From contig OZ251539.1 of assembly GCA_965243135.1 (NCBI GenBank), positions 928,001 to 992,000 on the forward strand: a stretch of 64,000 nucleotides of DNA, read 5' to 3'. Source of the stretch: Alphaproteobacteria bacterium. Lineage in GTDB: Bacteria > Pseudomonadota > Alphaproteobacteria > MPNO01 > UBA830. The notes under the pieces were generated by a model, which did not search any database, was not told the DNA's origin, and saw nothing but the letters and a program-made list of their open reading frames with translations. This document shows positions 1 through 50,266 of the stretch, piece after piece. A program made the translations under genes and the position numbers. How positions within the stretch are numbered: position 1 is the stretch's first letter; the number at the start of each line of letters is the position of its first letter.

Positions 1-59
1 TGATCGAGTTCGGCCGGGAGGAGCGCAACATCGTCGGGTTCGAATTCGAGACCGCCTGA
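1..59 (+). CDS. 3' end of AAA-ATPase/PD-(D/E)XK nuclease family gene (copy 1, cut by window edge, possibly pseudogene)
   Basis: Encodes IEFGREERNIVGFEFETA*, near-identical to the C-terminus of 1311..2849. It carries the same 6-nt deletion (LIGIEF to LIEF) as the decayed copy at 14040. Confidence 0.85.
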   Translation, partial: IEFGREERNIVGFEFETA

Positions 60-159
60 AGCCGGGAGCCGTCCCGTTCGGACGCAGGCGGCGCCTCCTT
101 GGTCTGGAAGCGTTCTAAACAGGGTACATGGACCGGACACACCGACATGTTAATGGAGC

Positions 160-280
160 CGTGTGCGCTGTCCGCAACGCCTTGGAATGCGGACAGCTTT
201 CAGGAGTACCTAATTTTTTCCTCGGGTACGGAAAACTGCGAATTCTCCGCGCCGGAACCGCGATTTTCGCAGATTCCACC
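160..280 (-). repeat. Dispersed intergenic repeat family R-A (copy 1)
   Basis: Core AATTCGC(A/G)GTTTTCCG at 229-244 (minus) matches 34283-34298 and 40574-40589, with looser similarity over about 120 bp. Confidence 0.65.
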
Positions 281-1275
281 CCTCGGCCGGCCGGGCGACG
301 CCCCTGGCCGCCTGCGTTCAGGCCACGGCCCGGCTTGCACCGGATTTGCGGCGCAGCAACACTCGCCTTTGCTGTGTAACTACCCCGAGCTGCCGGCCAC
401 CCGTGAACCATTCCGCGAGATTTTTTCGCGGCGGCGTTTGCCGTTCGGGAGGAGCGTGACGCTGAGGGCTGCCAGCCCTGTCTTCACGCCGCGACGCCCG
501 AACGCGGAACGGTTATGTCGGCACATGATAGCGGCGCGAGGCCGGGAGAACCATACCCAAAGTTACATGCTACGGGGTGAGCAGGCTCCGATCATGAGAG
601 AGTTTGTCATGCTGTCCGCCGCTCCCGGAAGTCTCGCGCACCGAGCATGGAGCGCCGGAGCGCGGCGTCCGCGCCCCGAACGGTCCACCGCCGCCGACCG
701 GTTGCCGACCGTCCTTTTGCAACCGGCCTCGACGCCGCCGGAGGACACGCCGGATAGCATTTCCCGCTAAGGCGGCCGCATGTCCAGAAGGTGCGCCGAG
801 AAGGCGAAATTACCAATGGACAAGCCGCCGCGACATAAGAAAGTCCCTCAGGCAAATCGCACTACCCAGAAAAATCTACGAAAAATTTTTCTGAAATCCC
901 ATATTTTCCAAGGGCCTTAGCGGGAATTGCTGCACGCCGGAGGACAAACCCTGTGCGCGGAACTTTGCGTATGCGCGAGCGGGATAGCCTGCAACGCCGC
1001 GCTTGCGGAGAACGGCCTCGTCGACCCGACCGTTTTCAAGGGCGCCGCACCGCTTTCTCGCCGACGCCTCCGCAAGTTCCCCGCGCCTTCGCCAAGGTGC
1101 CGTTTCGCACAGGTCGACGGACGGCGTCGGGGAACGGTTCGTCGGCGAGGTTCCCGGAGATCTCCCCAGGACTACGCGTCGCCCGGCGTCGCGACAGCGG
1201 CGATGGCGCGTTTCTCGCTCGACCCGTTGAGCGAAAGGCGAATCTCAAGAAATTGACGCGCACCCGGCGCTCTCC

Positions 1276-1310
1276 TTGACGGTTCCGGCATGGCGGCCTA
1301 CTCTCGCCGG
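1276..1310 (+). promoter_or_regulatory. Sigma70-type promoter, probably leaderless, for AAA-nuclease copy 2
   Basis: TTGACG (1276-1281), 17 bp, TACTCT (1299-1304), 6 nt, ATG (1311). No Shine-Dalgarno. The layout is conserved at other copies. Confidence 0.7.
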
Positions 1311-2849
1311 ATGGCGAAACGCATGCTTCCGATCGGCTTTTCCTCCCTCCGGGAGATCCGGGGGATGGACTGCTACTACGTCGACAAGACGGAGCATGCG
1401 CGCCGCCTCGTCGAGAGGGGCAAGTACTATTTCCTGTCGCGTCCGCGCCGGTTCGGCAAGACCCTGCTGGTGGACACGCTGCAGGAGCTGTTCGAGGGAA
1501 GCGAAGAACTGTTCCGGGGCCTCGCCGTGCACGACGGGTGGGACTGGTCGGGACGCCATCCGGTCGTGCGGATCAGCTTCGGCGGGGGCAATTTCGACTC
1601 CCCGGATCTCGTTCGGAGAAACGTGGAACGGCAGCTGGCGGCGACGGAGAGGCGCGCTGGCCTCGAACCGGGCTCCGACGAGGCGTCGAACCGTTTCGGG
1701 GAATTGATCGAAGCCTTGCACGAGCGCACCGGGCAGCGGGCGGTCGTTCTGGTGGACGAATACGACAAGCCGATCCTGGACGCGCTCGGCGACCGGGAAC
1801 TGGCGCTGGCCAACCGCGACTTCCTGCGCGGCTTCTACGCGATGATCAAGGACAACGACAAGCATCTCCGTTTCGTTTTCCTGACGGGGGTAAGCAAGTT
1901 CTCGCAGGCGGGCCTGTTCTCGGGCCTGAACAACCTGCGCGACATCACGCTGGCGCCGGAGTTCTCGGACATTTGCGGCTACACGGACGACGAACTGGAC
2001 GCGGTCTTCGCCTCCGAACTCGAGGGCCTGGACCGGGACAAGATCCGCCGCTGGTACAACGGCTACAACTGGCGCGGGCCGGAGAGGCTCTACAATCCGT
2101 TCGGCATCCTGCTGCTGCTCGCCGAGCGCAGGTTCGGCAACTACTGGTTCTTGAGCGGCACGCCGACCTTCCTGGTCGAGACGCTGTCGCGGCGCCAGGT
2201 CTCGGCGCCGGCCCTGGAGGGCATGTTCGCGGACGACGACCTGCTGTCGGCGATCGACGTCGACCGCATCCCCGTCGAGGCTTTGCTGTTCCAGACCGGC
2301 TACCTGACCATCGCCGGCGAAGAACCGGACGAGGACGCGCCCCTCTACCGGCTGGACTACCCGAACCATGAGGTGAAGCGCAGCCTGAACGCGCTCCTGC
2401 TGGAGGCGATGGCGCCGGACGTCGCGGTCGCGGCGGAGAGCCGGGAGTTGCGCCGCCTGATGAGGACGAACGACTTCGCGGGACTCGAGCGGCGGTTCCG
2501 GGCGTTCCTGGCGAGCATCCCGAACGAGTGGTACGCGAACACGGGCATGGCGGGGGCCCACTACGCGAGCGTGTTCTACTCGCACTTCGCGGCGGCGGGG
2601 ATGGACGTCCGCGCGGAGGAGAGCACGGCGCGCGGCCGCTCGGACCTGGCGGTTCTGCACGGCGGCGGCGTCTACCTGTTCGAGTTCAAGGTCGCGGACG
2701 GGAAGCCGGAAGGCCGGGCGCTGGCGCAGATACGGGAACGCGGCTACGCGGACAAGTACCGGCGTCCGGGCGTGCCGATCCACCTGATCGGCATCGAGTT
2801 CGGCCGGGAGGAGCGCAACATCGTCGGGTTCGAGTTCGAGACCGTCTAA
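1311..2849 (+). CDS. AAA-ATPase-like domain plus C-terminal PD-(D/E)XK nuclease (PDDEXK_9/DUF1703-type), copy 2, open
   Basis: YYVDKT, Walker A RPRRFGKT, Walker B VVLVDEYDKP, YNGY, LLFQTGYLTI, nuclease motif GRSD...LFEFK, ALAQIRERGY. Confidence 0.92.
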   Translation: MAKRMLPIGFSSLREIRGMDCYYVDKTEHARRLVERGKYYFLSRPRRFGKTLLVDTLQELFEGSEELFRGLAVHDGWDWSGRHPVVRISFGGGNFDSPDLVRRNVERQLAATERRAGLEPGSDEASNRFGELIEALHERTGQRAVVLVDEYDKPILDALGDRELALANRDFLRGFYAMIKDNDKHLRFVFLTGVSKFSQAGLFSGLNNLRDITLAPEFSDICGYTDDELDAVFASELEGLDRDKIRRWYNGYNWRGPERLYNPFGILLLLAERRFGNYWFLSGTPTFLVETLSRRQVSAPALEGMFADDDLLSAIDVDRIPVEALLFQTGYLTIAGEEPDEDAPLYRLDYPNHEVKRSLNALLLEAMAPDVAVAAESRELRRLMRTNDFAGLERRFRAFLASIPNEWYANTGMAGAHYASVFYSHFAAAGMDVRAEESTARGRSDLAVLHGGGVYLFEFKVADGKPEGRALAQIRERGYADKYRRPGVPIHLIGIEFGREERNIVGFEFETV

Positions 2850-2964
2850 TACCAATCCCACAATTAAATGACTTGTTTTTGCGGGGTTTGCAGTAGCCCG
2901 TTCTCGTTGCACATAAACGAGTACATTCATTCGTTATACAGGTCACTTAATAGTAGGTTTGGTA
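2850..2964. mobile_element. 115-bp AT-rich MITE inserted at the stop codon of copy 2
   Basis: 27-bp imperfect terminal inverted repeats (TACCAATCCCACAATTAAATGACTTGT vs TACCAAACCTACTATTAAGTGACCTGT, 22/27) flanked by TAA at 2847-2849 and 2965-2967. The equivalent empty site is visible at 51-66. Confidence 0.85.
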
Positions 2965-3343
2965 TAAAGCCGGGAGCCGTCCCGTTCGGACGTTTCGGCA
3001 GGCGGCACCTCCGCGAAAGGCGCGGGCGGACCGCGCCGCTGGTCGCCATGCCCTTCGTCGGGAACGGCCGTTGTTTCCGCCGGGTCGCCGCCTTGCGCGC
3101 CGGCCGCCCGACGGGACGCATCAGCGCGGGAACTCCGGGCCGACGTTCGGCTGGCGGACTCCGCCCTGGAAGCGTTCTAAACAGGGTACATGGACCGGAC
3201 ATATCGTCCGTTACTGACAGGTCGCGCGCCGGATCTTGCCGGATTCGGAAAAAAGAGTATCATCGGCGCCATCCTTTCCCGGCGCGGGGAAGCTTCGGTA
3301 CGTTTCCGTTCGGTGCGGAACGTCATGCATGGAGGGTGTTTCC

Positions 3344-4759
3344 TTGGATACTCATCAGATAGTCGCGCAGGACACGGGCCCGGCCGGCGAGCAAGCGGCG
3401 GGACCGATCCCGCAAACCGACAGGTATCGGGCGCTGACGTCAAGGCATTTCGGCGATATTCCCCAGCTGGAGAAAATTCCGGGCGACGACCGCTTCGCAA
3501 TGCAGGTGGTGAGCAGCGTGTTGCCATTCCGCTCCAACCGGTACGTGATCGACAACCTTATCGACTGGGACCGCGTGCCGGACGATCCGATCTATCAGAT
3601 GACCTTCCCGCAGGCGGGCATGCTGGAGGATTCGGAATTCGGACGGGTCGCGGACCTCATGCGCAACGATGCGCCGAAGAACGACTTCGAGGCCGCGGTC
3701 TTCGACATCAGGGAAAAGCTCAACCCGCATCCCGCAGGGCAGCGCGAACTGAACATCCCCAAGGTCGGAAACGAGATTTTGGAAGGGCTTCAGCACAAGT
3801 ACCGCGAGACGGTGCTGTTCTTCCCGAGTCAAGGGCAGACCTGCCACGCCTATTGCTCCTTCTGTTTCCGCTGGGCCCAGTTCGTCGGCGAGAAGGATCT
3901 CAAGATCTCCGCCCGCGAGGCCAGCGGACTGCACCGTTACCTTGCCGAGCATCCGGACGTCACCGATCTTCTGGTCACCGGCGGCGATCCGATGGTGATG
4001 AAGACGAGTTCGATGGCCCGGTTCCTGGAGCCGATCATCGAACAGCCGGAATTGTCCCATATCCGCGATATCCGCATCGGCACGAAGGCTCTGACGTTCT
4101 GGCCGAACCGCTTCGTCGGCGACGACGATGCCGACGACATGCTGCGGTTGCTGGAACGGATCGTCGGATCCGGGCGGCACGTCGCCATCATGGCCCATTT
4201 CAATCACTGGCGGGAACTGGAAACCGACGTGGTGCGCGAGGCCATTCGGCGGTTGCGCGATACCGGCGCGATCATCCGTTGCCAGGGGCCTGTCCTCGCC
4301 CACATCAACGATTCCCCGGACGTCTGGAGCCGCATGTGGCAGGAGCAGGTCCGGCTGGGCATGATTCCCTATTACATGTTCGTGGAACGCGACACGGGCG
4401 CCCGGAACTACTTCGAACTTCCCCTGGCCAGAACGTGGGAGGTTTTCCACGGCGCGGTTCGAAGCGTATCCGGGCTGGCCCGCACGGTTCGCGGGCCGAG
4501 CATGAGCGCCACGCCGGGCAAGGTCGAGGTTTTGGGAACGCAGGAACTTAACGGCGAGAAGGTTTTCGTGCTGCGATTCCTGCAGGGCCGCAATCCCGAG
4601 TGGGTCGGGCGTCCCTTCTTCGCCGCGTTCGACGGCAAGGCGACCTGGCTCAATCATCTGAAGCCGGCCTTCGGAGAAAAGCGCTTCTTCTTCGAAGACG
4701 AGCTCGACGCCATGACCGGAGGAGCGTCGATTCCCGTCGGCACGAGCAGGCCTCACTGA
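3344..4759 (+). CDS. KamA-family radical SAM protein (lysine 2,3-aminomutase-like)
   Basis: GLQHKYRETVL, CxxxCxxC (CHAYCSFC), LVTGGDP, RIGTK, HFNH, PYYMF, SATPGK. TTG start chosen after GGAGG; ATG at 3329 is an alternative. Confidence 0.88.
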   Translation: MDTHQIVAQDTGPAGEQAAGPIPQTDRYRALTSRHFGDIPQLEKIPGDDRFAMQVVSSVLPFRSNRYVIDNLIDWDRVPDDPIYQMTFPQAGMLEDSEFGRVADLMRNDAPKNDFEAAVFDIREKLNPHPAGQRELNIPKVGNEILEGLQHKYRETVLFFPSQGQTCHAYCSFCFRWAQFVGEKDLKISAREASGLHRYLAEHPDVTDLLVTGGDPMVMKTSSMARFLEPIIEQPELSHIRDIRIGTKALTFWPNRFVGDDDADDMLRLLERIVGSGRHVAIMAHFNHWRELETDVVREAIRRLRDTGAIIRCQGPVLAHINDSPDVWSRMWQEQVRLGMIPYYMFVERDTGARNYFELPLARTWEVFHGAVRSVSGLARTVRGPSMSATPGKVEVLGTQELNGEKVFVLRFLQGRNPEWVGRPFFAAFDGKATWLNHLKPAFGEKRFFFEDELDAMTGGASIPVGTSRPH

Positions 4760-5804: not shown

Positions 5805-6991
5805 TGGAAGAATCGGCCTGGGGCGAGGCGACCCGCGCCGCCCTCGTGGAGAAGGCGCGGTCGTTCGTCGAACCGTTTCGCGGGCGCGCGGGAGAAGCCG
5901 AAAAGAACGGCAGGCTGCACCTCGAGACGCACGAGGCGATGCGCGACGCGGGCTTCTACCGGCTCCAGATGCCGGCGCGTTACGGCGGTTTCGAGATGGA
6001 CCACAGGGGCATGCTCGACATTTCCGTCGAACTCGGACGCGCTTGCGGATCGGCGGCCTGGGTTTTCTCCAACATCGCCGCGCAGAACGGCATCGTCGCC
6101 ATGGCCTCGCGGGAGCTTCAGGACGAGGTCTGGGGCGAGGACGGCGACGTCTGCACGGCTTCGTCCTACCCGGCGAAGGGCGGCCGGGTGCGCAGGGCGG
6201 CGGGCGGGCTCGTCGCCGACGGCGTCTGGAGTTTCGCCTCGGGCGTGGACTGGGCCGAATGGAACAACCTGCAGACGTTCGTGCCGCAGGACAACGGGCC
6301 GCCGCAGCATCACATGGCGCTCGTTCCGCGGTCGGACTACACGATCGTCCGGGATTGGGCTTCGCCGGGACTCGTCGCGACCGGTTCGCATTCCATCGTT
6401 CTCGACAACGCGTTCATTCCCGATCACCGGACGCTGAACACCGCCGAAGCGCGGGCGGGGCGGACGATCGAAGCGTCGGGCAATTTCGGCCCGATTTTCC
6501 GCGTTCCGCCGATGTGCGGCGCGAACAAGATCTTCTCCGGCCCCGTGGTCGGCATGGCGCGCGGCGCGCTGGACGCGATCGAGAGGGAGCTCGCGGGCCG
6601 GAACAGCGTCGCCGGCGTTCCGATGGCGGCGCTGACGACGGCTCAGATGCGGGTCGCCGAGGCCGGGGCGTTGATCGACGCGGCCTGGGCGCTGCAGCAG
6701 CGCGACTGCGACGCCGCTCTCGAAATCGGCGAGGCCGGGCGGCTGACCACGGTCGAGGACCGGGCCGTCTGGCGCCGCAACAACGCCTATGCGGGGGTGA
6801 TGTGCGTAAAGGCGGTCCAGTTGCTGTATCCGCTCATCGGCGCCCGCGGCCTCGCGCCCGACAGCGATTTCTTGCGCGCCTTTCGGGACATTCACGCGGC
6901 GACGATGCAGATCAACATGTCCTGGGATCGGCAGGCGGTGTCCGCGGGCCAGATTCAGCTCGGCCTCGAGCCGGACGATCCGCGGATTTGA
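5804..6991 (+). CDS. Acyl-CoA dehydrogenase-fold flavin-dependent monooxygenase (HsaA/C2-type)
   Basis: PARYGG, GRACGSAAW, GVWSFASG, DW...GLVATGS, RAFRDIH. TGATG overlap with the upstream gene. Confidence 0.88.
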   Translation: MEESAWGEATRAALVEKARSFVEPFRGRAGEAEKNGRLHLETHEAMRDAGFYRLQMPARYGGFEMDHRGMLDISVELGRACGSAAWVFSNIAAQNGIVAMASRELQDEVWGEDGDVCTASSYPAKGGRVRRAAGGLVADGVWSFASGVDWAEWNNLQTFVPQDNGPPQHHMALVPRSDYTIVRDWASPGLVATGSHSIVLDNAFIPDHRTLNTAEARAGRTIEASGNFGPIFRVPPMCGANKIFSGPVVGMARGALDAIERELAGRNSVAGVPMAALTTAQMRVAEAGALIDAAWALQQRDCDAALEIGEAGRLTTVEDRAVWRRNNAYAGVMCVKAVQLLYPLIGARGLAPDSDFLRAFRDIHAATMQINMSWDRQAVSAGQIQLGLEPDDPRI

Positions 6992-8755: not shown

Positions 8756-11700
8756 TCAGAAGTAGTAGGCGAAGCTGACGGCGCCGTCGAACTCGCCGTT
8801 GCCGCTGCCGCGTGCGGCGTATCCGGCGGCGGCCCGCAGCGCGTAGCGGCCGTCCCCCCAGCTATGCTCGCCGCCGATCCCGAGGCGGACCCCGGTCTTC
8901 TGCGCCTCGGTCGTCTTCAGCGCGACGTTCGAGACCTTCGCCGTCCGCTCGTCCGAGAACTCGCGCGTCGCCTCGATCGAGCCGAACAGCCGCGGACCGT
9001 TCTCCGTCCGCGTTTCAACCCGAATGCCGGCTCGGCCCATAAGGCTTTGCGCGTCCTCCACCGACACCTTGGCCCCGCGGTTGCCTATCCTGTCCGTGAA
9101 GCTCAGCGATGCCTCCGACCAAGCCAAGCCGACGGCGGGCGTCACTGTCAGCCTGCTGCCCACGTCCGTCCGCCGCCCGGCCTCCACGCCGAGAGCCAGC
9201 CCAAGACCCTTCGCGCCGTCCTTCAGAAACTTCTCGGAGGTCAGCTTGACGTCGTACCAGGTCGCCATCGCCTGCGCGTCCACATGGATGCCGCCGCCGA
9301 GGAACGCCGTGCCGTGCGCGCCGGCACCGACACCCGACAGCTCGATCTCGCCGCCGGAACCCGCCATCTCCGCAGAACCCTGCAGCCCGCGCACCGACAC
9401 GCCGAACCGCCCGTCGCGGCCCACCACGAAGTCCACCCCCGCCTGCACGCCGTACCGGCGGTAGTCGAAGGCCATGTTCGGCTGCGTCGAACTCTTCGCC
9501 TTCCACTCGCCGCCCGCGCCGTCGATCCGCGCCCAGCCGCCGTTGCCGTTTCGCGCAGCCGCCATGCGCTCCCCGTAGGTCGGCAGTTCGTTCATTGCCA
9601 GCAGCACCGACGGCAGCGCCTCGTAGAGACTGCATCGTTTCAACAGGTCGTTCGACATGTCGCAAGCGAAGGGGAGGCGCGGGCGGTCGCCGCCATTCTC
9701 TTCGGACACGCATTCGTCGTTCTGAAGTTCCTGCCCGGCAGGACAGGGGACCAACTTTTCGTAATCAGGATGCCGTTCGGGTTCCACCACGCCGCTGGTT
9801 TCGTTGAGAGGCGCGGGCAGATAGTAGCCGGTGGGATCGCCGTCCGGGGTCGTCTCAGCGATCCGGACGACAACCACGTTTCGCGTTCCTTGCGCCCTGC
9901 CATCTTCCGTGATGTTGTCGCCGCCAACGGTGCCCAACCTCCTCGCCGCGTGACCGGCGCCCCGCTGCGTGAGGAGCCCTTCGCCATCGGCGAAGTCGGG
10001 ATCCTGAAACACGGTCACCTGGGTCGGCGCGCCGTCGCCCCGGATCGCGAGAGTCGCCCCGTTGGCTTCCACTTGGCCCTTCGGACCGACGGTGACGCTG
10101 CCGCCGCCGGTCAGATGCACCGCCGCATGCGGCCTGTCGTCGCCGGCTTGGGGCACGCTGCCCCTGACGAGCCCGTGGATGAGGATGATCGCCCGGCCGG
10201 GATCGTTGACCAGGATCGCCCGGCCCGAAGTGCCGGCGTGCACCTCGCCCGTCGCGCCGACCGTGACCATGCCGCCGCCCGCAATATGCACGGCCGCGTC
10301 CGTCCCGCCCGTCACGGTGCCGTTCACCTCCACGGTCTGCTTCAGGATGCGGGCGGCGCCCGTTCCCGTGCTGCCGGCGTTGGCGACCCAGATGCCCGCT
10401 TCGCCGCCGGTGACGGTCGCGCCGTCGGCGATGGTGACGGAAATGGCCCCATTCATGTCGTTGGGCGTCGCGTAGTAGGCGCGGATGCCGTCGCCCCGAG
10501 AGGTGATGGATCCCCCGTTCACGGCGACGCGGATGTTGCCGACGTTGTAGCGGTCGAGCAGAGCGTTCACCGCGTTCTTGTAGTCTTGTGAGAAGCCCGC
10601 GTCCGCGTCGTCGAGCGCGGCGGTCAGCCCATCGCTGTTGTCGGTCGCCACCGCCCGCAGCACCGCCTTCTCCTTGTCCGAGAGGCCCTGCGCCAGAATG
10701 TTCTGCAGCAGGGTTCTGATAGCGTCGTCGTCCGTCTGGAGATACGCCACGATCTCGGCGTCCGTCACGTCGGCTAGGCTCGTCGCGCTCGAGTCGATGG
10801 CCTCGAAGACCGCCGCCGCGACCGCGAGGTCCGCGTTTTCGAGCGCCGCCCGGAACTGCTTGACGTAGTCGTTGTCGCTGGCGGTGGCGCCCGTCGGCAC
10901 GGCCGCCAGCTGCGCTGCGTTGTCCGCGATCTCGCCCGGGTCATCGCCCTTCGCCACTTCCTTCGCCACATGGCTCCAGCCCATGACCTGGGCTTCGATT
11001 CCAACCGCCGGTCCCTCACGGACGATCATCTCGGGCGCCACGTATTCCAGGTTCGTTTCAAGCGCGGCGGCCACGCTTCCCGCCCTGAGCTTGGCCGTGT
11101 CGCTCTCGGCGGTTTCCGTTCCGTGCGAGAACGCGCCGCCTGTCCATGCGATGTCGATCAGGGGCTGAGCCGCGCGCGTCTCGCCCTCCGCGCTGATGCG
11201 TCCGACCTGGGCGTAGATGCCCTTGCGTGCCGCAATCGTCCCGCTCTGCTTGATCGCGATCTGGCGGTTGGCCTCCTTGACGGGAACCCAGATGCCGAAC
11301 AGCGCCGCCATGAGGTCGCCGCTGTTGGTGACATCGATGTCGCCGGCGACGACATTCTCGGGGTGCTGGCCTTGGACCAGGATGCCGTGGTCGTGTCTGG
11401 CGTCCGCCGCGCCGATATCGCCGCTGTTGGTCACCGTGACGTCGCCGGAGCCTTTCTCCTCGACGAAGATGCCCATCCAGTTCTCGACCCCCGTCTTCTT
11501 GATGGCGCCGCTGTTGGTGACCGAAATCGCGCCGGAACTCGCGCGGCGACGGACGAAGATGCCGGTCTTCGGGGTGGTGATCGTCCCCGCCTGGTCGATG
11601 GTGACGGCGCCGTCCGCGTTCTCCGAGCCGAGCTCGGCGAAGACGCCGTGCTGTTCCGTGGAGGTCAGCGTGACGCCTGCGGCGACGTCGATCTCGATGT

Positions 11701-13663: not shown

Positions 13664-13683
13664 CGAAAAACTCCCTGACTTCG

Positions 13684-13696
13684 CCCCCCCCCCCCC
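13684..13696 (-). repeat. G13 homopolymer upstream of the autotransporter start (candidate phase-variation tract)
   Basis: 13 consecutive C on the plus strand, 20 nt upstream of ATG 13663. Confidence 0.8.
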
Positions 13697-14039
13697 GTAC
13701 ACGGAGGAAGTAAGGCAATAGGCAATTCAGAAGGCAAAATAATACAACATGTCATGCCCGCGCAAGTAATAATTTTTTCGCGTTTTCGGCGCGCGTCTGC
13801 GGGAACCGATTCGACTTCGGCGCGAACGCCCGATCCTCGGCGACCGGCCGGAACGCCGGCCAAAGCGCTTTGCGCCGACATGCCGCGAAAGCGCCCTTGG
13901 CTGGGTCGGCCGCTCCCCTGTTGTTGCAGGCATAGCGGAGCGGTCCGCGGGGCGCTGATCAGGCTGCTGCCGACAAAAAATAGCGCAGCGCAAACGGCCC
14001 CTTCTAGACGGCTTCGGTGCGGCGGCTTACTCTGCCCGA

Positions 14040-15239: not shown

Positions 15240-15911
15240 ACCGCTGTCCGGCACCGGGAGGACGTCCCCGTGCAGGTTCGAGAGCCTCGGAGGTCTCGAT
15301 TTCGGAACTCCCGACGTGGCGCCTGGTTTCGTTGAATTTTTGCGCAGTGCTCACATCTTGCTTTCCTGCGCGACAATGTAGCGCATCGTCTCGGAGCCTC
15401 TTGCGTTGTTCCGACCGTCTCGCTTGCGAATCGCAACGCAGGCTGTCGGCAGCGCGAGGGCATTATCAGGAGGTGACCAGTCGACAAAACGGCATGGCGC
15501 AAACGCCTGAATTTTCGATCGCAAAGCGCTGGTTCAATTCCTGTTTCGGAAATCATGCTGTCAAGTCGGGCGGCATGAAACATGGTTGCAAAGAAATTTT
15601 CGGACCTTCAATGACGGTAACGAATGGACGCATAAAACAACGTCAATGCATGATATAAAGCGATCGCAAATCCAATTTTGAAGCGTGCGGCATGAACGGA
15701 ATCGTCAATGGTTTTGGCGGCCGCCGATTTGGCTCCGCATGAGCGCGGAGCGGGCGGTTGGAGATGGCGCTCCGTCCCTCCTTTCGAGCGGCCGCGCATG
15801 TCGAGCATGCCTGAAATCCTGGTCGAAATTTTCGATTCCGGCGATCGCGGCTTGACGGGACGGCGCGTTTGATGACAAGCTGAACGAACTTGACGGCTCG
15901 GGAGGCGCGAG

Positions 15912-40720: not shown

Positions 40721-42187
40721 GTGAACGTTGTGAATTCAAAAACGAGTCCGACCGGACCGGATGCGCAGCGGTCCATTCTCGACAGGGCGTCGCTGACGAC
40801 CGCCGCGCTCGCCTTGGCTGCTTTCGTCCTCTGCGGAGGATCGGCTTTCGTCCTCTACCCGGGAAATGCGCAGGCGTCGCACAGTTGCGGCGAAGAACAT
40901 CCACCAGTCGAACCAGGCCATCGGCAGCATAGGTGCAGGGGCCGCCTTCTAGTAGACAACAGCGGCTTAATAGAAGGGGAAGATGCTATAGATTTCGGGG
41001 AAGGTGGAGGCCAGCTCATCAACCGTGAAGGTGGGCGCATAAAGGGAGACATCGTGGTCGACGAAGACGAAGATGTCAAGGTGATCGTGGAGCTGCCGGA
41101 AGACGATCCATCGCTGGATGCGTATAAAGAGGCGGTGGAAGGCGATCTCATCGGCATTGACGAAGTGGTTGTCCGCGCCGGCGACAAGGAGAGCACGCTG
41201 CCCGTTGTGGATGGCCAGCCCGTCGGCCTGCCGCCGAGGCCGGAGGCAAAGGAAGAGGAAGAACCTTCGGACGCCGACTTCGCTTGCGACGGGGTGGATC
41301 ATTGCCGCCTCTACGAGGCGCTGCCGTCGGCGCTGCTGGCCATGAACGGGCTGCCGACCTACGGGGAGCGCATGGCGGCGGCGCGGGACGCCGCTGGCGG
41401 CTGGGCGCGGATCGACGGCGCGGGCGGCGAGTGGAAGGCGAAGAGTTCGACGCCCTCGACGCCGCCGAACGCGGCCTTCGACTACCGCCGGTACGGCGTG
41501 CAGGCGGGGGTGGATTTCGCCGTTGGCGGCGACGGGCGGTTCGGCGTGTCGGTGCGCGGGCTGCGGGGCTCGGCCGAGATGGCGGGTTCCGGCGGCGAGA
41601 TCGATCTGTCCGGGGTCGGCGCGGGCGCGCACGGGACGGCGTTCCTCGGCGGCGGCTTCCACGTGGACGCGCAGGCGATGGCGACCTGGTACGACGTCAA
41701 GCTGACTTCCGGGACGAACGAGGTTCTGAAGGACGGCGCGAAGGGGCTGGGGCTGGCTCTCGGCCTCGAGGCCGGGCGGCGGACGGAAGTGGGCCGCGGC
41801 CTGACCGTGACGCCCGGCGCCGGTCTGGCGTGGTCGGACGTGTCCCTGGACTTCACGGACGCGATGGGCACCCCGTTCTCCGTGGAAGACGCGCAAAGCC
41901 TGGAAGGCCGCGCCGGATTGCGGGTCGAGGCGCGGATGGAGGACGGCCTGCGGCTGTCCGGTTCGGTGCAAGCGACGCGCGAGTTCTCGGACGAGAAGTC
42001 GGCGAAGGCGTCCAGGGAGTCGCTGAAGACGACCGAAGCGCAAAAGACCGGCGTTCGCGTCGGGTTCGGCGGCTCGCGCAGCTGGGAGGACGGCCGGTAT
42101 ACGCTGCGGGCCGACGCGGGATACGCGGCGCGCGGCAGCGGCAACGGCGCGTTCAACGGCGGCGTCAGCTTGGCCTACCGCTTCTGA
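40721..42187 (+). CDS. Short-passenger autotransporter
   Basis: Signal peptide (..NAQA), a short acidic passenger, and a barrel nearly identical to that of 8756..13663 (LYEALPS..., GGWARIDGAGGEWKAKSST, ends LAYRF). Confidence 0.88.
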   Translation: MNVVNSKTSPTGPDAQRSILDRASLTTAALALAAFVLCGGSAFVLYPGNAQASHSCGEEHPPVEPGHRQHRCRGRLLVDNSGLIEGEDAIDFGEGGGQLINREGGRIKGDIVVDEDEDVKVIVELPEDDPSLDAYKEAVEGDLIGIDEVVVRAGDKESTLPVVDGQPVGLPPRPEAKEEEEPSDADFACDGVDHCRLYEALPSALLAMNGLPTYGERMAAARDAAGGWARIDGAGGEWKAKSSTPSTPPNAAFDYRRYGVQAGVDFAVGGDGRFGVSVRGLRGSAEMAGSGGEIDLSGVGAGAHGTAFLGGGFHVDAQAMATWYDVKLTSGTNEVLKDGAKGLGLALGLEAGRRTEVGRGLTVTPGAGLAWSDVSLDFTDAMGTPFSVEDAQSLEGRAGLRVEARMEDGLRLSGSVQATREFSDEKSAKASRESLKTTEAQKTGVRVGFGGSRSWEDGRYTLRADAGYAARGSGNGAFNGGVSLAYRF

Positions 42188-43310: not shown

Positions 43311-43358
43311 CGCCGCCGACTCCTTGACGGCTCCGGCGCGGCGGCCTACTCTCTTCCG

Positions 43359-44894
43359 ATGGCGAAACGCATGCTTCCGATCGGCATGACCTCCCTCCGG
43401 AAAATCCGGGGGATGGACTGCTACTACGTCGACAAGACGGACCATGTCCGCCGCCTTGTCGAGGGTGGTCAATATTATTTTCTGTCGCGTCCGCGCCGGT
43501 TCGGCAAGACCCTCCTGGTGGACACGCTGCAGAAGCTGTTCGAGGGAAGCGAGGAGTTGTTCCGGGGCCTCGCCGTGCACGGCAAGTGGGACTGGTCGAC
43601 GCGCCATCCTGTCGTGCGGATCAGCTTCGGCGGGGGCAATTTCGACTCTCCGGACCACATTCGGAGAAACGTGGAGGACCAGTTGGAGGAAACGGAGCGG
43701 CTGGCCGGCCTCGAACCGGGCCCCGCCGAGGCGTCGGTTCGTTTCCGGCGCCTGATAAGGACGCTGCACGAGCGCACCGGGCAGCGGACGGTCGTTCTGG
43801 TGGACGAGTACGACAAGCCAATTCTGGACGCGCTCGGCGACCGGGAACTGGCGCTGGCCAACCGCGATTTCCTGCGCGGCTTCTACGCGATGATCAAGGA
43901 GTGCGACGAGCAGCTCCGCTTCGTTTTCCTGACGGGGGTGAGCAAGTTCTCGAAAGCGGGCCTGTTCTCGGGCCTGAACAACCTGAACGACATCACGCTG
44001 GACGAGCGCTACGGCGCTATTTGCGGTTGTACGGACGCGGAACTGGACGCGGTCTTCGCCCCGGAACTGGAGGGCCTGGACCGGGACGAAATCCGGCACT
44101 GGTACAACGGCTACAACTGGCTCGGACCGGAGAAGGTCTACAATCCGTTCGGCCTCCTGCTGTTGTTCGACAAACGCAAGTTCGGCAACTACTGGTTCCA
44201 TAGCGGCACGCCGACCTTCCTGGTCGAGACGCTGGCGCGCCGCGACCTGCCCACTCCCGACCTGGACGGCATGACCGGCAGCGAGAGCCTGCTCTCGACC
44301 TTCGACGTGGACAATATCTCGGTCGAGGCGCTTCTGTTCCAGACCGGCTACCTCACCATCGCGGGCGAGGAGGACGGGCGCTACCGGCTGGACTACCCGA
44401 ACCTCGAAGTGCGCCAGAGCCTGGGCGAGGCCCTGCTGGAAGAACTGCTCCCGGTCGAGGCCCGCAAGAAGACGGGGCGCCTGCGGCTAGGCGAATTGCT
44501 GGAAGCGAACGACTTCGAACGCATCGGGACCTTGTTCCGCGGCGTCTTCGCCGCCATCCCGCACCAGTGGTACATGAACAGCCCGGTCGCGAAGTACGAG
44601 GCCCACTACGCGAGCGTCATCCACAGCTGCTTCCTGATGGAGGGCCTCGAGCCGGTCGCGGAGGACAGCGGCAGCCGGGGGCGCGCCGACATGGCGGTCC
44701 GCGCCGGCGGGCGCGTCTACCTGTTCGAGTTCAAGGTGGTGGAGCGCGGGCGGGAGGGAACCGCGCTCGCGCAGTTGCGGGAGAAGGGCTACGCGGACAA
44801 GTACCGCCGTCTCGGTCGTTCGGTCCACCTGATCGGGGTGGAGTTCAGTCGCGAAGAGCGCAACGTCGTCGGGTTCGATTGCGAGACCGCCTGA
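43359..44894 (+). CDS. AAA-ATPase/PD-(D/E)XK nuclease copy 6, open, with the alternative (type B) C-terminal half
   Basis: RPRRFGKT, VDEYDKP, GRADM...LFEFK. Promoter TTGACG (43324)-17-TACTCT-6-ATG. Confidence 0.92.
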   Translation: MAKRMLPIGMTSLRKIRGMDCYYVDKTDHVRRLVEGGQYYFLSRPRRFGKTLLVDTLQKLFEGSEELFRGLAVHGKWDWSTRHPVVRISFGGGNFDSPDHIRRNVEDQLEETERLAGLEPGPAEASVRFRRLIRTLHERTGQRTVVLVDEYDKPILDALGDRELALANRDFLRGFYAMIKECDEQLRFVFLTGVSKFSKAGLFSGLNNLNDITLDERYGAICGCTDAELDAVFAPELEGLDRDEIRHWYNGYNWLGPEKVYNPFGLLLLFDKRKFGNYWFHSGTPTFLVETLARRDLPTPDLDGMTGSESLLSTFDVDNISVEALLFQTGYLTIAGEEDGRYRLDYPNLEVRQSLGEALLEELLPVEARKKTGRLRLGELLEANDFERIGTLFRGVFAAIPHQWYMNSPVAKYEAHYASVIHSCFLMEGLEPVAEDSGSRGRADMAVRAGGRVYLFEFKVVERGREGTALAQLREKGYADKYRRLGRSVHLIGVEFSREERNVVGFDCETA

Positions 44895-45527: not shown

Positions 45528-47882
45528 CTGCCTGTCGCCCACAAATCGGGTGTTGACACGGTGAGTCTGATTCGGTACCGTGCGGGACATGGAGGTCCAG
45601 AATCAAGTCATCCGCACTCTTCGGAGCGATCTTGTCCGGCTGCAAGGGCTGACCGGGGACGGGGGCAGTCGCGGCCAACTGGTCGACCGGGTCTGCGCGG
45701 CGTTCGGGTTTCGGGACGGGCGCGGTCGCTGGCAGCGCGTGACTTGCCGGAAAGCGCTGACCGCGCTGGAAGCGGAAGGACACATTTCGCTTCCGCCGCG
45801 CCGTACCGCTCGCTGTGGCCAGCGACGCGTCGCCGATCCGGTGCCGCCGGCGCGCGACGTGCCGGACGCGGTCTGCGCGGTCGAGGATTTGGAGCTGGTC
45901 CTGGTGACGGATGCGCGGCAGCGCGCGATCTGGGACGGGTTGATGACGCACGAGCATCCGTGCGGCGCAGGGCCTTTCGTGGGCTGCCAGGTACGTTACC
46001 TGGTGGGGTCGGCGCATGGCTGGCTGGGAGCCGTGGGGTTTGCCTCTTCCGCCCGTTGGCTGGCCTGCCGCGACCGCTGGATTGGCTGGAACGACGACAA
46101 GCGGCGCGCTTGTTTGCACCGGGTCGCGTGCCTGTCGCGTTTTCTGATCCGTCCCGGCATCGAGTGCCGGAATCTCGCCTCGCACGTCCTGGGGCAAACA
46201 GTATGCATGGCGGGAGACGATTTCGAGGTGCGCTACGGCTATCGGCCCTATTTGCTGGAGACCTTCGTCGACGAGGAGAAGCATACGGGGGCGATCTTCC
46301 GTTCCGCGAACTGGCAGCATGTGGGGAAGACCAGTGGTCGCCGAAGGGGTGCGGCGAAGGCACCGAAAGCGGTGTACATGTACGAACTGGACGCAGGATG
46401 GCGGGAACGTCTGCACATTCCCGAACCGCGTCTTGCGCCTCTGAAGGTCGGGGCCGGTCTCGATCGGGAGAGCTGGGCGGAACAGGAGTTCAGCGGCGCA
46501 CCGCTGGGGGATGCACGCCTGAGCGCACGCCTGGTGACTTGCGCCCGGCATCAGGCGGAAGCGCCGATGCGGGCGTTCACGGGCGCAGCGAGGGGAGATC
46601 AAGCCTTGATCAAGGCTTATTACCGTTTCATCGACAAGCCGGACAACGAGGCGGTGACGGTGGAGAACATCATGCAACCGCACCGTCGCCGGACGCTGCA
46701 GCGGATGCAGGGAGAGAAGACGGTGCTGTGCGTGCAGGATGGCAGCACGCTGAACTTCGCGAAGCGCGGCAAGACCGAAGGGTTGGGAATCATCGGCAGG
46801 AACCAGACCGCCGCCGCCGCCCGGGGCTTGCACTTGCATGCGACTCTTGCGGTGAACGCCGACGGGTTGCCGCTGGGAGTTCTGCGGGCGGCGTTCGACG
46901 CCCCACAGCCGGGCGCGGAGAAGGACAAGCCTCGCGAGGAGAAGAAGTCGTACCGGTGGATCGAGGGTCTTCGCGACAGCGCCGCGGCCGCTGCGGCACT
47001 CGATGGCGTGCAGGTCGTCGGCGTCATGGATCGGGAAGCAGACTTCGTCGACCTGTTCGTCGAGCGCCGCGAGCGGACGCCGGGAGTGGAACTCCTGGTG
47101 CGGGCGAAGACGAACCGCGTTCTTGGAAAGGACGACGCCGACAAGCTGTTCGACAAGGTGCGGAAAAGTCCAGCGCAAGGCAAGCTGGTCATCGAGGTCA
47201 AGCGTCTGAGCGCACGAATCAAGGCCAGCAAGCAGGCCGCAAAGGCAATGCGACCGGCCCGCCAGGCTACGGTCAGGCTGCGCTACCTCAAGGTCGAGCT
47301 GCCGGCGAAGGGCAAGGCGCCTGTCGAGATGACGATCGTGCACGTCCGCGAGGAAAACCCGCCGGCGGACGACGAACGGCTGGAATGGTTCCTGCTGACG
47401 ACGCTGCCGGTCGAGAGTGCCGTGGACGCCGAACGCATCCTGATGTGGTACGGCCTGCGCTGGCGCATCGAAGATTACTTTCGCGTCTTGAAGTCCGGCT
47501 GCAAGATCGAGGAACTCGAGAACCGGACGGCCGAGCGCCTTCAGCGCGCCGCAGCCATCAATATGGTCGTCGCCTGGCGGATTCACCTGATGGCCCGCCT
47601 CGGACGGGAACTGCCCGATCTGCCGCCCGAGATCCTGTTCTCGGACGTCGAACTCCAGGTGCTGGCGCTGTTCGCCAAATCGCGACGCAAGGACGCGCCG
47701 AAAAATCTTGGAGAGGCTGTCTTCCTGGTCGCCGCCCTCGGCGGCTACATCAAGCGCAAGCGGGACCCGCCAGGCGCGGAAGTAATGTGGAACGGCTACC
47801 TCCAACTCGCCGCAATGGCTTTTCACCAGGAACTTCGGGATGAATATTGTTAGTCTAGCATCGATTTGTGGGGGACAGGCAG
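45528..47882 (+). mobile_element. Intact IS4-family (IS50/Tn5-like) insertion sequence, 2355 bp
   Basis: 21-bp inverted repeats CTGCCTGTC(G/C)CCCACAAATCG (45528-45548 and 47862-47882, 20/21). 8-bp target duplication CGCTTGCC (45520-45527 and 47883-47890). Confidence 0.92.
45589..47853 (+). CDS. IS4-family transposase with N-terminal DUF4338-like domain
   Basis: SRFLIRP...NLAS..L...LLETFVD..G.IFR.ANW (DUF4338-like), then WAEQEF...LGDARL, VQD, MDREAD, WFLLT, Y..RWRIEDYFRVLKSG (YREK), PPG. Promoter TTGACA-17-TACCGT-7-ATG. Confidence 0.92.
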   Translation: MEVQNQVIRTLRSDLVRLQGLTGDGGSRGQLVDRVCAAFGFRDGRGRWQRVTCRKALTALEAEGHISLPPRRTARCGQRRVADPVPPARDVPDAVCAVEDLELVLVTDARQRAIWDGLMTHEHPCGAGPFVGCQVRYLVGSAHGWLGAVGFASSARWLACRDRWIGWNDDKRRACLHRVACLSRFLIRPGIECRNLASHVLGQTVCMAGDDFEVRYGYRPYLLETFVDEEKHTGAIFRSANWQHVGKTSGRRRGAAKAPKAVYMYELDAGWRERLHIPEPRLAPLKVGAGLDRESWAEQEFSGAPLGDARLSARLVTCARHQAEAPMRAFTGAARGDQALIKAYYRFIDKPDNEAVTVENIMQPHRRRTLQRMQGEKTVLCVQDGSTLNFAKRGKTEGLGIIGRNQTAAAARGLHLHATLAVNADGLPLGVLRAAFDAPQPGAEKDKPREEKKSYRWIEGLRDSAAAAAALDGVQVVGVMDREADFVDLFVERRERTPGVELLVRAKTNRVLGKDDADKLFDKVRKSPAQGKLVIEVKRLSARIKASKQAAKAMRPARQATVRLRYLKVELPAKGKAPVEMTIVHVREENPPADDERLEWFLLTTLPVESAVDAERILMWYGLRWRIEDYFRVLKSGCKIEELENRTAERLQRAAAINMVVAWRIHLMARLGRELPDLPPEILFSDVELQVLALFAKSRRKDAPKNLGEAVFLVAALGGYIKRKRDPPGAEVMWNGYLQLAAMAFHQELRDEYC

Positions 47883-48408
47883 CGCTTGCCTTCGCGTTGC
47901 GTCGGCTCTGGTTTCCGCGGCGAGGGCGTCGACCTTGCTGGCGGTGCCGGCCGTCGGCGTTCGCTTCCGCCTGACGGCCTCCTGGCCGCGCGTTGAGCGT
48001 GTCGGACGTGCTTGCAACCATGGTCGCTTACTGCGGGCGGGCAGGATTTCCCCGGAGCGACAGATTCGCTCGCCTCCGCGCTTTCCCCCGCCGGCCGCCT
48101 GTACCGCCGCGGAAGCTGCCGGCTGCTTGTCACGCGATACAGAGCGGGACAGGCCTGGTCGCGAAGTGCCGCGGCGACGTTCTCTCGCCGGCCCGTGGCG
48201 CGTCCCTTTCGCCGGGCTTTCGCCCGGCGCGTCCGTTCGCCGCAGGGGCGGCGTCCGGCCCCGAGTTCCCTGCGGCCTCCTCGGAGGGGCTCCCGTCGAA
48301 CCGCTGGCGCGCAAGGCGACGAACCGGCTGCTGCCGCAGGCCGAATCCGCGTCGCGGGCGGCGTTCTTTCGCGGAGGCGGCCGTGTCCGAACGGGACCTC
48401 GTCCGGCT

Positions 48409-49887
48409 TCAGGCGGCCTCGCAGCCGACGACGTTGCGCTCCTCGCGGCTGAACTCCACCAGGTGGACCGAACGCCCGAGACGGCGGTACTTGTCCGCGT
48501 AGCCCTTCTCCCGCAACTGCGCGATCGCGATCCCCTCCCGTCCGCGCTCCACCACCTTGAGCTCGAACAGGTAGACGCGCCCGTCGGCGCGGACCGCCAT
48601 GTCGGCGCGCCCCCGGCTGCCGCTGTCCTCCGCGACCGGCTCGAAGCCCTTCAAGCAGCTGGACGCTCGCGTAGTGGGCCGCGTACTTCGCGACGGGGCT
48701 GTTCAGGTACCACTGGTGCGGGGCGAAGACGCCGCGGAACAGGGTCCCGAGGCGCTCGAAGTCGTTCGCCTCCAGCAGTTCGCCTAGCCGCAGGCGCGCC
48801 GTCTTCTTGCGCGCCTCGACCGGGAGCAGCTCTCCCAGCAGGGCCTCGCCCAGGCTCCGGCGCACCTCGAGGTTCGGGTAGTCCAGTCGGTAGCGCCCGT
48901 CCTCCTCGCCGGTGATGGTGAGGTAGCCGGTCTGGAACAGAAGCGCCTCGACATTGTCCACGTCGAAGGCCGAGAGCAGGCTCTCGCTGCCGATCATGCC
49001 GTCCAGGTCGGGCGTGGGCAGGTCGCGGCGCGTCAGCGTCTCGACCAGGAAGGTCGGCGTGCCGCTATGGAACCAGTAGTTGCCGAACTTGCGTTTGTCG
49101 AACAGCAGCAGGAGGCCGAACGGGTTGTAGACCTTCTCCGGTCCGAGCCAGTTGTAGCCGTTGTAGAAGCGCCGGACCTTCTCCCGGTCCAGGCCCTCCA
49201 GTTCCGGGGCGAAGACCGCGTCCAGCTCCGCTTCGGTGTAACCGCAGATGGCGCCGTAGCGCTCGTCCAGCGTGATGTCGTTCAGGTTGTTCAGGCCCGA
49301 GAACAGGCCCGATAACTTGCTCACCCCCGTCAGGAAAACGAAACGGAGCTGCTCGTCGCAATCCTTGATCGCCCCGTACAGGTCGCGCAGAAAGTCCCGG
49401 TTGGCCCGCGCCAGTTCCCGGTCGCCGAGCGCGGACCGGCTTGTCGTACTCGTCCACCAGCACGACCGCCCGCTGCCCGGTGCGCTCGTGCAGCGTCAGG
49501 CGCCGGAAACGGATCGCCGCCCCGGCGGGGCCCGGTTCGAGGCCGGCCTGCATCTCCGTCTTTTCCAGCTGCGCTTCCACGGTTTCCCGAACGCGGTCCG
49601 GGACGACGAAATTGCGCCCGCCGAAGCTGAGCCGCACGACGGCGCGCCGACCAGTCCCACTTGCCGTGCACGGCGAGGCCCCGGAACAACTCCTCGCTTC
49701 CCTCGAACAGCCTCTGCAGCGTGTCCACCAACAGGGTCTTGCCGAACCGGCGCGGACGCGACAGGAAATAGTAATCGCCCCCTTCGACGAGGCGGCGCAA
49801 ATGGTCCGTCTTGTCGACGTAGTAGCAGTCCCTCGTCCGGATTTTCCAGAGGGAGGTCATGCCGACCGGAAGCATGCGTTTCGTCAG
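48409..49887 (-). pseudogene. AAA-ATPase/PD-(D/E)XK nuclease copy 7, full-span but frameshifted
   Basis: Fragments in several frames cover the whole gene. The first ATG is lost and the promoter spacer is shortened to 12 bp. Confidence 0.9.
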
Positions 49888-50266
49888 AGAGTAGGCCGCC
49901 GCGCCCGTCAAGAAGCCGACGGTCGCGAGGCAGGGCGATGGTAGCGGCGTGATTCCACATTTTTTTCGCTGCGCTACTTTCTTCTCTGACTTTCGCTAAC
50001 CGATTCGGTTACTCGCTGGTCATGGCTGAGATTCCCGCGCCGGACTGGGAAGATTTTTCGCTCGAAGGAGTGGTTACGCAACGAAATGGCGCAAAAAACC
50101 GCCGTGGCCAAGCCGCAAGCATGTCCGGTTCCCCGGTTGGGACCAGCGCGGCGCGACGCACAGAAAATAGCGTGGGATCGCCCTGCTTCGGCGAACCGCG
50201 GCGGTTCCGCTAGGCCCGAAAACCCACTAGACTTCCGCCGCGTTCGACCGTGCGCGGGAGGAAGAG

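Follow-up and report, generated by a model that had tools for sequence, protein, structure and literature searches.

The domain architecture of DUF1703 proteins was defined in 2007, in a paper which also linked their N-terminal region to PF01637 (PMC1913061), and a DUF1703-type architecture was listed in 2012 (PMC3424549). A review table places PF09820 among the ATPase domains found in RADAR, PARIS and Old-tin proteins (PMC10952713). The closest described expansion is that of Cardinium hertigii cCpun, with 25 DUF1703 paralogs at a mean amino acid identity of 39% and with recombination detected by RDP4 and the pairwise homoplasy index (PHI) test; according to the same source, only 9.8% of species have at least ten copies of the family (PMC6387759). 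Here we describe a 64,000-nucleotide stretch of the genome of an Alphaproteobacteria bacterium (contig OZ251539.1 of assembly GCA_965243135.1, positions 928,001 to 992,000; hereafter the window), in which seven loci belong to an AAA-type ATPase/PD-(D/E)XK nuclease gene family. These loci are part of a lineage-specific expansion of one PF09820+PF08011 (DUF1703) gene, and we hold with high confidence that its members evolve as mosaics through recombination between paralogs.

The family resembles that of Cardinium cCpun in its two-domain architecture, lineage-specific expansion, reticulate network, intragenic recombination and independent expansions in related genomes, and belongs to the phenomenon already described there, though it is far larger and has been shuffled more thoroughly. 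Against 25 paralogs at 39% identity, there are here 98 open copies and 65 partial or broken segments, with a median protein identity among the open copies of 71%, which together make up 3.58% of a 6.1-Mb genome. In contrast to Cardinium, exchange has been dense enough to unlink the N-terminal blocks from three discrete C-half types, the modelled N-terminus appears to leave no room for signal peptides, a promoter-like element abuts the ATG and several copies contain a group II intron. The three C-terminal classes, the promoter-at-ATG unit and the family-targeting intron are what is added here. DUF1703-type ATPase-nucleases are widespread, and no tested function was found in the literature searched; full-text searches returned no paper on the family in sponge symbionts or on its biochemical function.

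Reassortment of blocks between paralogs

The genome is a single contig of 6,103,318 bases, in which copies were located by tblastn with one family copy as the query. Family-like DNA amounts to 218,532 bases in 163 segments. Ninety-eight copies are full-length and open from the conserved start to the stop codon, with ATG at the aligned position in 97 of them; the other 65 segments comprise 26 full-length broken copies, 11 pieces of 900–1399 nucleotides (nt), 13 of 400–899 nt and 15 of 100–399 nt. An earlier reading of the letters of the stretch (the sequence-only reading) had proposed a multicopy gene from seven window copies. This is borne out, and the seven are real, yet they are only a sample of the genomic set. 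Protein identity between pairs of the 98 copies runs from 40 to 97.7% and no two are identical; the closest pair shares 97.6% of its nucleotides, so that every copy differs from any other by at least 2.4%. They are distributed around the entire chromosome, both singly and in head-to-tail arrays with spacers of 108–1432 nt, some of which hold carried-along pieces of other genes. Two tandem members at genome positions 1565053–1568791 (minus strand) are only 42% identical to the rest, and their upstream region also differs; they seem to form a distinct and older subfamily, and the family alignment was built without them.

Recombination was assessed on a codon alignment of 95 copies and 1521 columns, from which three divergent copies and columns with at least 10% gaps had been dropped. 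The PHI statistic was 0.70 against a permutation mean of 0.953 (sd 0.005; 768 informative sites), with none of 1000 permutations as low, and site incompatibility grew with distance along the alignment. Linkage disequilibrium (r2) between 207 common biallelic sites was 0.36 for sites within 10 nt of each other but only 0.02 for those more than 700 nt apart, the floor for 95 sequences being 0.0105. This loss of linkage within about 700 nt illustrates the extent to which ectopic recombination can shuffle a family of paralogs in a bacterium. In topology tests the N-terminal data rejected the C-terminal tree (delta lnL 5462) and the C-terminal data rejected the N-terminal tree (delta lnL 9627); the Shimodaira-Hasegawa p value prints as 0 with 1000 resamplings, which are fewer than advised for the approximately unbiased test. 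PHI, linkage decay and the conflict between the two topologies all speak against a single tree for all blocks. The Hudson-Kaplan minimum number of recombination events (Rm = 119) was taken as inflated by recurrent mutation at this divergence and was not relied on.

The mosaic has a clear block structure. Distances in the C-terminal block of 220 codons are bimodal, being up to about 0.13 within a type and mostly 0.27–0.42 between types, and they define three C-half types of 50, 33 and 11 copies together with one singleton. The two halves of this block are tightly linked (C1-C2 adjusted Rand index, ARI, 0.97) and the types are fully coherent over approximately 630 nt. By contrast with these halves, the block at residues 85–185 (11 clusters) shows no association with C type (N2-C1 ARI 0.02) or with the middle block (N2-M ARI 0.00). 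In a sliding scan the association with C type, expressed as adjusted mutual information, was 0.78–0.98 over all of the sequence that follows codon 286 but no higher than 0.17 before codon 255, which places the switch zone between the N blocks and the C type in a conserved stretch at about codons 226–285. Exact runs of 100–195 nt, where about 25 would be expected, occur in pairs which are only 77–80% identical overall, and 50 distinct (N2, M, C) combinations are found among the 95 copies. The proposal that variable blocks reassort by recombination between paralogs, and not by simple duplication, is supported by PHI, linkage decay, topology, ARI, the sliding scan and nearest-neighbour painting. 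The copies were generated through tandem and dispersed duplication, after which segments were exchanged by homologous recombination (gene conversion) via the near-identical stretches which flank the variable blocks. It is through such exchange that the N blocks stand near linkage equilibrium with three old, discrete C types.

The motif at residues 87–99 is independent of C type (chi-square p = 0.8) and strongly tied to the motif at residues 173–180 (chi-square p = 3.6e-12; 95 copies). These two motifs (e.g. window positions 1569–1607 and 1827–1850) lie about 80 residues apart, and neither shows more than a weak tie to a motif located in the interval. Their co-variation could reflect contact in the folded protein.

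Within the window, all seven loci and the motifs reported for them were found where the sequence-only reading had placed them. The first (1–59, plus strand) is the 3' end, including the stop codon, of a copy which is intact at genome positions 926527–928059, as seen by tblastn and extension of its open reading frame (ORF); its C-half belongs to type 2 by clustering, the type termed A. Three copies are intact, as judged by open frame, motifs and Pfam domains. The one at 1311–2849 (plus strand, 512 amino acids) carries the N motifs of type a (RISFGGGNFDSPD, LALAN and RGFYAMIK) followed by C-half A (APALEGM and GMDVRAEESTARGRSD; cluster 2). The copy at 29217–30761 (minus strand, 514 amino acids) has N motifs b (RLSFGRGNFVVPD, LARAN and LYGAIK) and a C-half identical in its motifs to that of the 1311 copy, and the copy at 43359–44894 (plus strand, 511 amino acids) joins the a motifs to C-half B (PTPDLDGM and EPVAEDSGSRGRAD; cluster 1). 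The fourth combination, bB, is present in a full-length broken copy at 48409–49887 (minus strand), the motifs of which are spread across three frames with eight stops in frame 0. All four N/C combinations do therefore occur in the window, that of bB in a broken copy. The remaining loci are a 3' fragment of C-half B type at 32643–33334 (plus strand), which runs from about residue 273 to the end and was recognized by tblastn and motifs, and a decayed copy at 14040–15244 (plus strand; tblastn, Pfam and frame check). The latter is about 340 nt short and frame-shifted mid-gene: its Walker B and N-block motifs are absent from frame 0 and tblastn matches fall in more than one frame, while the N-terminal 75 or so amino acids and the nuclease end are still recognizable.

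As for the blocks themselves, conserved stretches do alternate with variable ones, but the actual mosaic is finer than two halves. The N-blocks of the two a copies are alike at their ends and differ in the middle, where the 1311 copy has the sequence of the b copy at 29217. On nearest-neighbour painting, the closest relative of each window copy switches every 30–60 codons; codons 141–170 of the 1311 copy, for example, are 100% identical to a copy with which it shares only 79.3% overall.

The unit, its upkeep and its turnover

Conservation between copies begins sharply about 45 nt 5' of the ATG and fades within about 50 nt 3' of the stop codon, with no common end sequence. Immediately upstream of the start, 90 of the 98 copies carry the arrangement TTGAC[G/C]-N17(18)-TAYYCT-N6-ATG, with a spacer of 17 nt in 83 and of 18 nt in seven; the -10-like box stands 6 nt from the ATG in all 90. 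In the window this element precedes the 1311 copy (1276–1310, plus strand: TTGACG at 1276–1281, 17-nt spacer, TACTCT at 1299–1304, then 6 nt and ATG), the 29217 copy (30762–30797, minus strand: TTGACC, 18-nt spacer, TATTCT, 6 nt, ATG) and the 43359 copy (43324–43358, plus strand: TTGACG, 17-nt spacer, TACTCT, 6 nt, ATG). From its form we infer a sigma-70-type promoter, the product of which would be a leaderless mRNA, since none of the 98 copies has a Shine-Dalgarno-like core upstream. In favour of the promoter reading we count a similar arrangement (CTTGCCGG-N17-CTATTCT) upstream of a tRNA-Thr gene which lies elsewhere in the genome and is conserved in four relatives. In one related genome (G004), the copies have a different upstream region, with a leader of about 110 nt and a purine-rich stretch before the start.

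At the other end of the unit no signal was recognized. Three 3' flanks fold no better than shuffled sequences (z = -0.04, -1.26 and +0.72), and a terminator scanner gave one terminator-like site against 1.7 expected. The three window units have no terminal inverted repeats in common. An identity as an insertion sequence or transposon was rejected on the grounds that there are no shared inverted repeats and no common terminus and that the closest pair is only 97.6% identical, target-site duplications not having been systematically searched. A 34-nt repeat flanking the copy at the start of the window was also dismissed as a candidate flanking motif, having only five genomic hits, three of them local.

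A 21-nt motif (AAACGGCGCAGCGCAAACGCC-like, with at most three mismatches) occurs 88 times in the genome (e.g. 6740–6765 at locus L118) against three times in a reversed-sequence control. It was discarded as a family-specific end because no more than 24 of its hits are within 600 nt of an intact copy, with 13 on the upstream and 11 on the downstream side. In nine family copies it stands 41–54 nt upstream of the ATG, and in some family copies, as at the tRNA-Thr gene, it directly adjoins the -35 box; it may be a shared promoter-upstream element.

In the pilE/pilS and vlsE systems there is one expressed locus and many promoterless partial cassettes, and new combinations are created by segmental conversion. 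Segmental conversion is common to those systems and to this family, but here there are 98 complete open copies, 90 of them with a promoter-like element of their own, and an arrangement of expression site and silent cassettes was therefore rejected. The suggestion that dead copies serve as donor cassettes is not supported, and broken copies are not distinct partners: their median best identity to an intact copy is 92.8% (intact against intact, 93.5%) and the median of their longest exact tract is 126 nt (intact copies, 157 nt). Exchange may nevertheless involve the broken copies, as donors or as recipients.

The motifs GK[TS], VDEYD and E-F-K are invariant in all 95 aligned copies. The ratio of nonsynonymous to synonymous substitution rates (dN/dS), pooled over all pairs with the deep ones included, is 0.53, and the 15-codon windows in which the pooled value exceeds 1 are those at codons 91–105, 271–285 and 361–375 (1.25–1.34), with codons 346–360 at 1.0. 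We conclude that purifying selection acts on the enzyme core and that constraint is relaxed in the variable patches.

Comparison with relatives points to turnover of the copies. The 29217 copy and the fragment at 32649 lie in DNA which is missing between the conserved genes of three or four genomes of the same genus, the fragment being inside about 2.1 kb which is lacking at this site in G001, G002 and G004. A further copy is situated between a gene and tRNA-Thr, within about 2 kb which are additional in comparison with four relatives; conversely, two sites of copies in G004 are empty in the present genome. The copies of G004 are 66–99.6% identical to one another in amino acids and 55–61% identical to ours, with flanking DNA 72–84% identical, a pattern which fits either independent expansion or within-genome homogenisation, together with fast turnover.

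The family was found in four of 30 related genomes in a first sample and in five of 300 other alphaproteobacterial genomes at least 90% complete, with 1–31 first-look candidates per genome against 196 here. It has 17,368 cluster representatives at E ≤0.001, and it is present on 67 plasmid records and on 31 unannotated 'Bacteriophage sp.' contigs from faecal viromes. In sponge metagenome runs one third to one half of the words sampled from a window stretch are present, and one run covers its unique parts at a few differences per kilobase. RecA puts the genome in the Alphaproteobacteria, its best listed relatives being alphaproteobacterial metagenome-assembled genomes at 80% identity. The best metagenome relatives of the flanking Sua5-like gene were only 58–77% identical and were of no use for presence/absence polymorphism.

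Protein fold and candidate functions

The assignment to a two-domain AAA-type ATPase/PD-(D/E)XK nuclease was upheld by matches to PF09820 and PF08011 (PDDEXK_9) above the curated cut-offs (26.1 and 25.5 bits, respectively). PF09820 scored 205–208 bits (E 1e-60) in the three open window copies and 86.9 bits in the decayed 14040 copy; PF08011 scored 47.8–69 bits (E 1e-16 to 1e-19) in the same four. The window translations contain a Walker A motif SRPRRFGKT, which fits RPRRFGK[ST], and a Walker B motif DEYD within the invariant VDEYD; for DUF1703, Knizewski et al. (2007, PMC1913061) describe both RPRRFGK[ST], an unusual Walker A, and DEYD. In the segment before E-F-K the five commonest variants (76 of 95 copies) all end in GR-x-D, which fits the PD-(D/E)XK signature, and across 81 diverse relatives D445, E458 and K460 each show conservation of 90% or more.

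An AlphaFold2 model of the 1311 copy has a mean predicted local distance difference test score (pLDDT) of 93.5 and a predicted template modelling score of 0.92. A sequence search of solved structures had given nothing significant (best E 0.058). Residues 4–360 of the model align best with the archaeal PF01637-type AAA+ ATPases SSO1545 (2fna, Z 15.8) and PAB2304 (2qen, Z 15.5), with 278–280 residues aligned at 11–14% identity; these proteins lack a PD-(D/E)XK nuclease. Next come CED-4, Apaf-1 and the resistosomes of plant nucleotide-binding leucine-rich repeat proteins (NLRs) at Z ~13, Orc2 (12.8), BrxC (11.5) and Avs3 (8dgc, 11.2). The ATPase part is an origin recognition complex (ORC)/STAND-like (signal transduction ATPases with numerous domains) P-loop protein made up of nucleotide-binding, helical and winged-helix modules, to which the PD-(D/E)XK nuclease is joined at the C-terminal end. 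Some Avs proteins likewise have a nuclease effector fused to a switch ATPase, and plant NLR gene clusters are expanded and variable. The three modules superpose on STAND/NLR-like ATPases with Z 11–14, but archaeal AAA+ and Orc/Cdc6 proteins score equally well or better, and unlike STAND/NLR proteins those described here have a C-terminal and not an N-terminal nuclease, no C-terminal repeat sensor (tetratricopeptide, WD40 or leucine-rich repeats) and no match among PADLOC families. We do not assign them to that group.

The C-terminal domain aligns with the nuclease domains of Wolbachia CidB (Z 12.4) and CinB (Z 10.0) (7fiv, 7esz) with a root-mean-square deviation of 2.8–3.0 Å over 132–147 residues and 16% identity; these proteins are without the AAA-type ATPase context. 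Differences from CidB/CinB around the catalytic residues are noted for DUF1703 in PMC6387759.

When placed on the secondary-structure string, the N block with the greatest variability (residues 91–135) forms a two-helix element between the strand at 85–89 and the Walker B strand at 144–149. By AAA+ topology we take this to be the site of the DNA-contacting initiator-specific motif (ISM) of Orc1/Cdc6-type initiators. The variable C block, on the same string, covers the helices at 353–428 and the first strands of the nuclease core. The N-terminus lies within the folded ATPase core (pLDDT 88–98 for residues 1–40) and the PF09820 match starts at ORF residue 14, which is residue 7 from the conserved Met; since the N-terminus belongs to the core in this way, there would be no room for a cleavable signal peptide.

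We tentatively favour the view that the family is a conflict or immune-like repertoire. Each copy is a self-contained unit, the conserved promoter-like element of which directly adjoins the ATG. Each protein would be an ATP-gated nuclease in which recognition would be set by variable helical surfaces, namely the two-helix insert between strand 2 and Walker B and the helices ahead of the nuclease core. The paralog set would then serve as a germline repertoire against phages, plasmids and other mobile DNA, its diversity being kept by conversion between paralogs. We lean to this view because the fold is that of the switch ATPases of immunity and origin recognition joined to a nuclease effector, because each copy retains its catalytic residues and its own promoter-like element while variation falls in helical surface elements, and because the family has a patchy distribution, spreads horizontally and is expanded in the genomes that have it. 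Several observations weigh against it. The window neighbours are ordinary genes, among them those for acyl-CoA enzymes, monooxygenases and transporters together with recA and alaS, which is no defence island; the exception is the Tn5-like transposase gene at 45580–47853. Of the 74 ORFs around 20 other dispersed copies, eight have a mobile-element or defence-like character, 15 belong to no Pfam family and the others are metabolic. PADLOC, NCBIfam and PHROG models do not match the family. With such neighbours and no such match, the label 'possibly anti-phage' attached to it by the sequence-only reading is not sustained. Neither Pfam nor the model shows a repeat-type sensor domain, the protein ending with the nuclease at residue 512, and the variable surfaces were assigned on the secondary-structure string, not on coordinates. 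A consensus promoter scanner calls no promoter at window positions 1100–3100, since the -10 box matches consensus at only three of six positions. Lastly, dN/dS in closely related pairs is 0.04–0.82 with one window at 1.08, and is below 1 in 32 of 33 windows; we make no claim of positive selection, since the all-pairs signal did not hold among close pairs, and 'diversifying' in the selective sense is not supported.

A bolder form of the same idea, which we consider doubtful, would make the family a bacterial counterpart of an NLR gene cluster: about 100 individually promoted ATP-gated nucleases acting as an innate-immune repertoire with at least 50 specificity combinations. An ISM-like helical hairpin would here be combined with one of three C-terminal helix/nuclease types and continually re-dealt by gene conversion, and the pairing of residues 87–99 with 173–180, despite shuffling between them, would mark co-adapted contact surfaces. 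Should the conflict repertoire prove real, it would be an example, in a prokaryote, of germline receptors diversified through gene conversion. Whatever the role, about 100 intact variants in one cell with clear block structure form a natural panel for asking what the variable blocks recognize.

Much of the same evidence could be accommodated by a selfish, self-spreading nuclease gene, comparable to a free-standing homing-endonuclease gene or an addictive module, with the mosaic a result of ectopic recombination; we rate this as rather unlikely. Such a gene would explain why some 163 segments are scattered in intergenic DNA among ordinary genes, with many (65) decayed, why copies occupy DNA that the syntenic sites of relatives lack, and vice versa, and why the unit is compact with its own promoter-like element. 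The family is also on the 67 plasmid records, it adjoins mobile DNA (a Tn5-like transposase gene at 45580–47853 and the group II intron inside copies), and a bacterial DUF1703 homologue is reported in the Medea selfish element of Tribolium (PMC6387759). No two copies are identical, however, so that there is no sign of a recent burst: the maximum is 97.6% in nucleotides and 97.7% in amino acids, with a median best partner at 93.5%. The three units lack common terminal inverted repeats, conservation stops about 45 nt 5' and about 50 nt 3' with no common end, the catalytic motifs are kept in 95 of 95 copies with an overall dN/dS of 0.53, and many arrays are plain tandem duplications carrying pieces of neighbouring genes. 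If selfish DNA it is, it would represent a new style of mobile nuclease gene without recognizable transposon ends. That there is no repertoire function at all, an ordinary or dispensable gene having drifted to high copy number in a repeat-rich, symbiont-like genome with conversion as a neutral by-product, strikes us as unlikely. The genome is indeed rich in repeats (the ~230-nt element, Tn5-like copies and group II introns described below), there is no robust positive selection, 65 segments are decaying, and decay of linkage and mosaics are expected in any large paralog family. Neutral upkeep of 98 open copies is nevertheless hard to envisage without selection on individual copies, because the frames, all of the catalytic motifs and, in 90 of 98, the promoter-like element have been kept; moreover, three deep C-half types persist without intermediates.

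We see only a small chance that the proteins are exported effectors or toxins directed at a host or at competitors, a role put forward in the Cardinium study for its DUF1703 expansion. Predicted signal peptides are reported there for 10 of 25 cCpun paralogs and secreted nucleases are proposed (PMC6387759). In the present case the nuclease domain resembles those of CidB and CinB (Z 10–12.4) and close relatives of the genome are present in sponge metagenome runs, but the modelled N-terminus would not accommodate a cleavable signal peptide and no secretion-system gene lies beside the copies examined. Finally, mosaics could in principle be produced by assembly or polishing from mixed reads of different paralogs, and the short-read contigs of four runs end at every family copy and so cannot place the blocks. 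This explanation is very improbable: the genome forms one contig of 6.1 Mb, contigs of two runs match the unique flanks without a single difference, each copy is at least 2.4% distant from every other, and random mixing of reads would destroy both the 98 open frames and the coherence of the C-halves over about 630 nt. In addition, the separate G004 assembly also holds many similar, non-identical copies (66–99.6% amino acid identity), and recombination among paralogs of the family is reported by an independent study of another organism.

Introns, transposase and other repeats

Several family copies outside the window are interrupted by a group II intron at one and the same codon boundary, FQTGYLT|IAGE. 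The intron of locus L087 (genome positions 1150704–1151571) matches the Rfam models RF02003 with 77 bits and RF00029 with 51 bits, and the insert starts with GTGCG (GUGYG-type). Further intron-bearing copies lie near 1934100, 3618450, 4119190 and 2889590 and at 2665270–2668830. When the ORF-less intron of 861–868 nt was removed in silico, an open frame resulted at all four short-intron loci, two of which read 507 and 508 codons and two of which had no stop in the stretch read. On this evidence some 'split' family loci do not appear to be dead, with a group II intron standing between codons. The intron also has longer forms, with splits at intron positions 456 and 730, which probably contain an ORF for a reverse transcriptase. 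It would seem that the intron uses the multicopy gene as its homing site.

Between two of the family copies in the window lies an ORF of 757 amino acids (45580–47853, plus strand) with the Tn5-type domains Tnp_DNA_bind, DDE_Tnp_1 and Dimer_Tnp_Tn5 and a DruA-like N-terminal region (PF14236, E 3.6e-23). It has six long DNA matches elsewhere in the genome with 78–85% identity. The neighbouring ORF of 507 amino acids at 3236–4759 was considered as a hidden divergent member of the family and rejected (hhalign probability 0.4%).

A dispersed repeat of about 230 nt at window positions ~368–598 has several dozen copies in the genome, with 80–88% identity and mostly away from family copies; among the repeat hits of window positions 100–950, 31 of 132 fall within 1.5 kb of a family locus. 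Being without an obvious ORF, it may be an element like the miniature inverted-repeat transposable elements. Autotransporter genes with a PF03797 beta-domain are located at 8756–13702 (minus strand) and 40721–42187 (plus strand), one with an ORF of 1648 amino acids, and parts of both recur 3–17 times in the genome.

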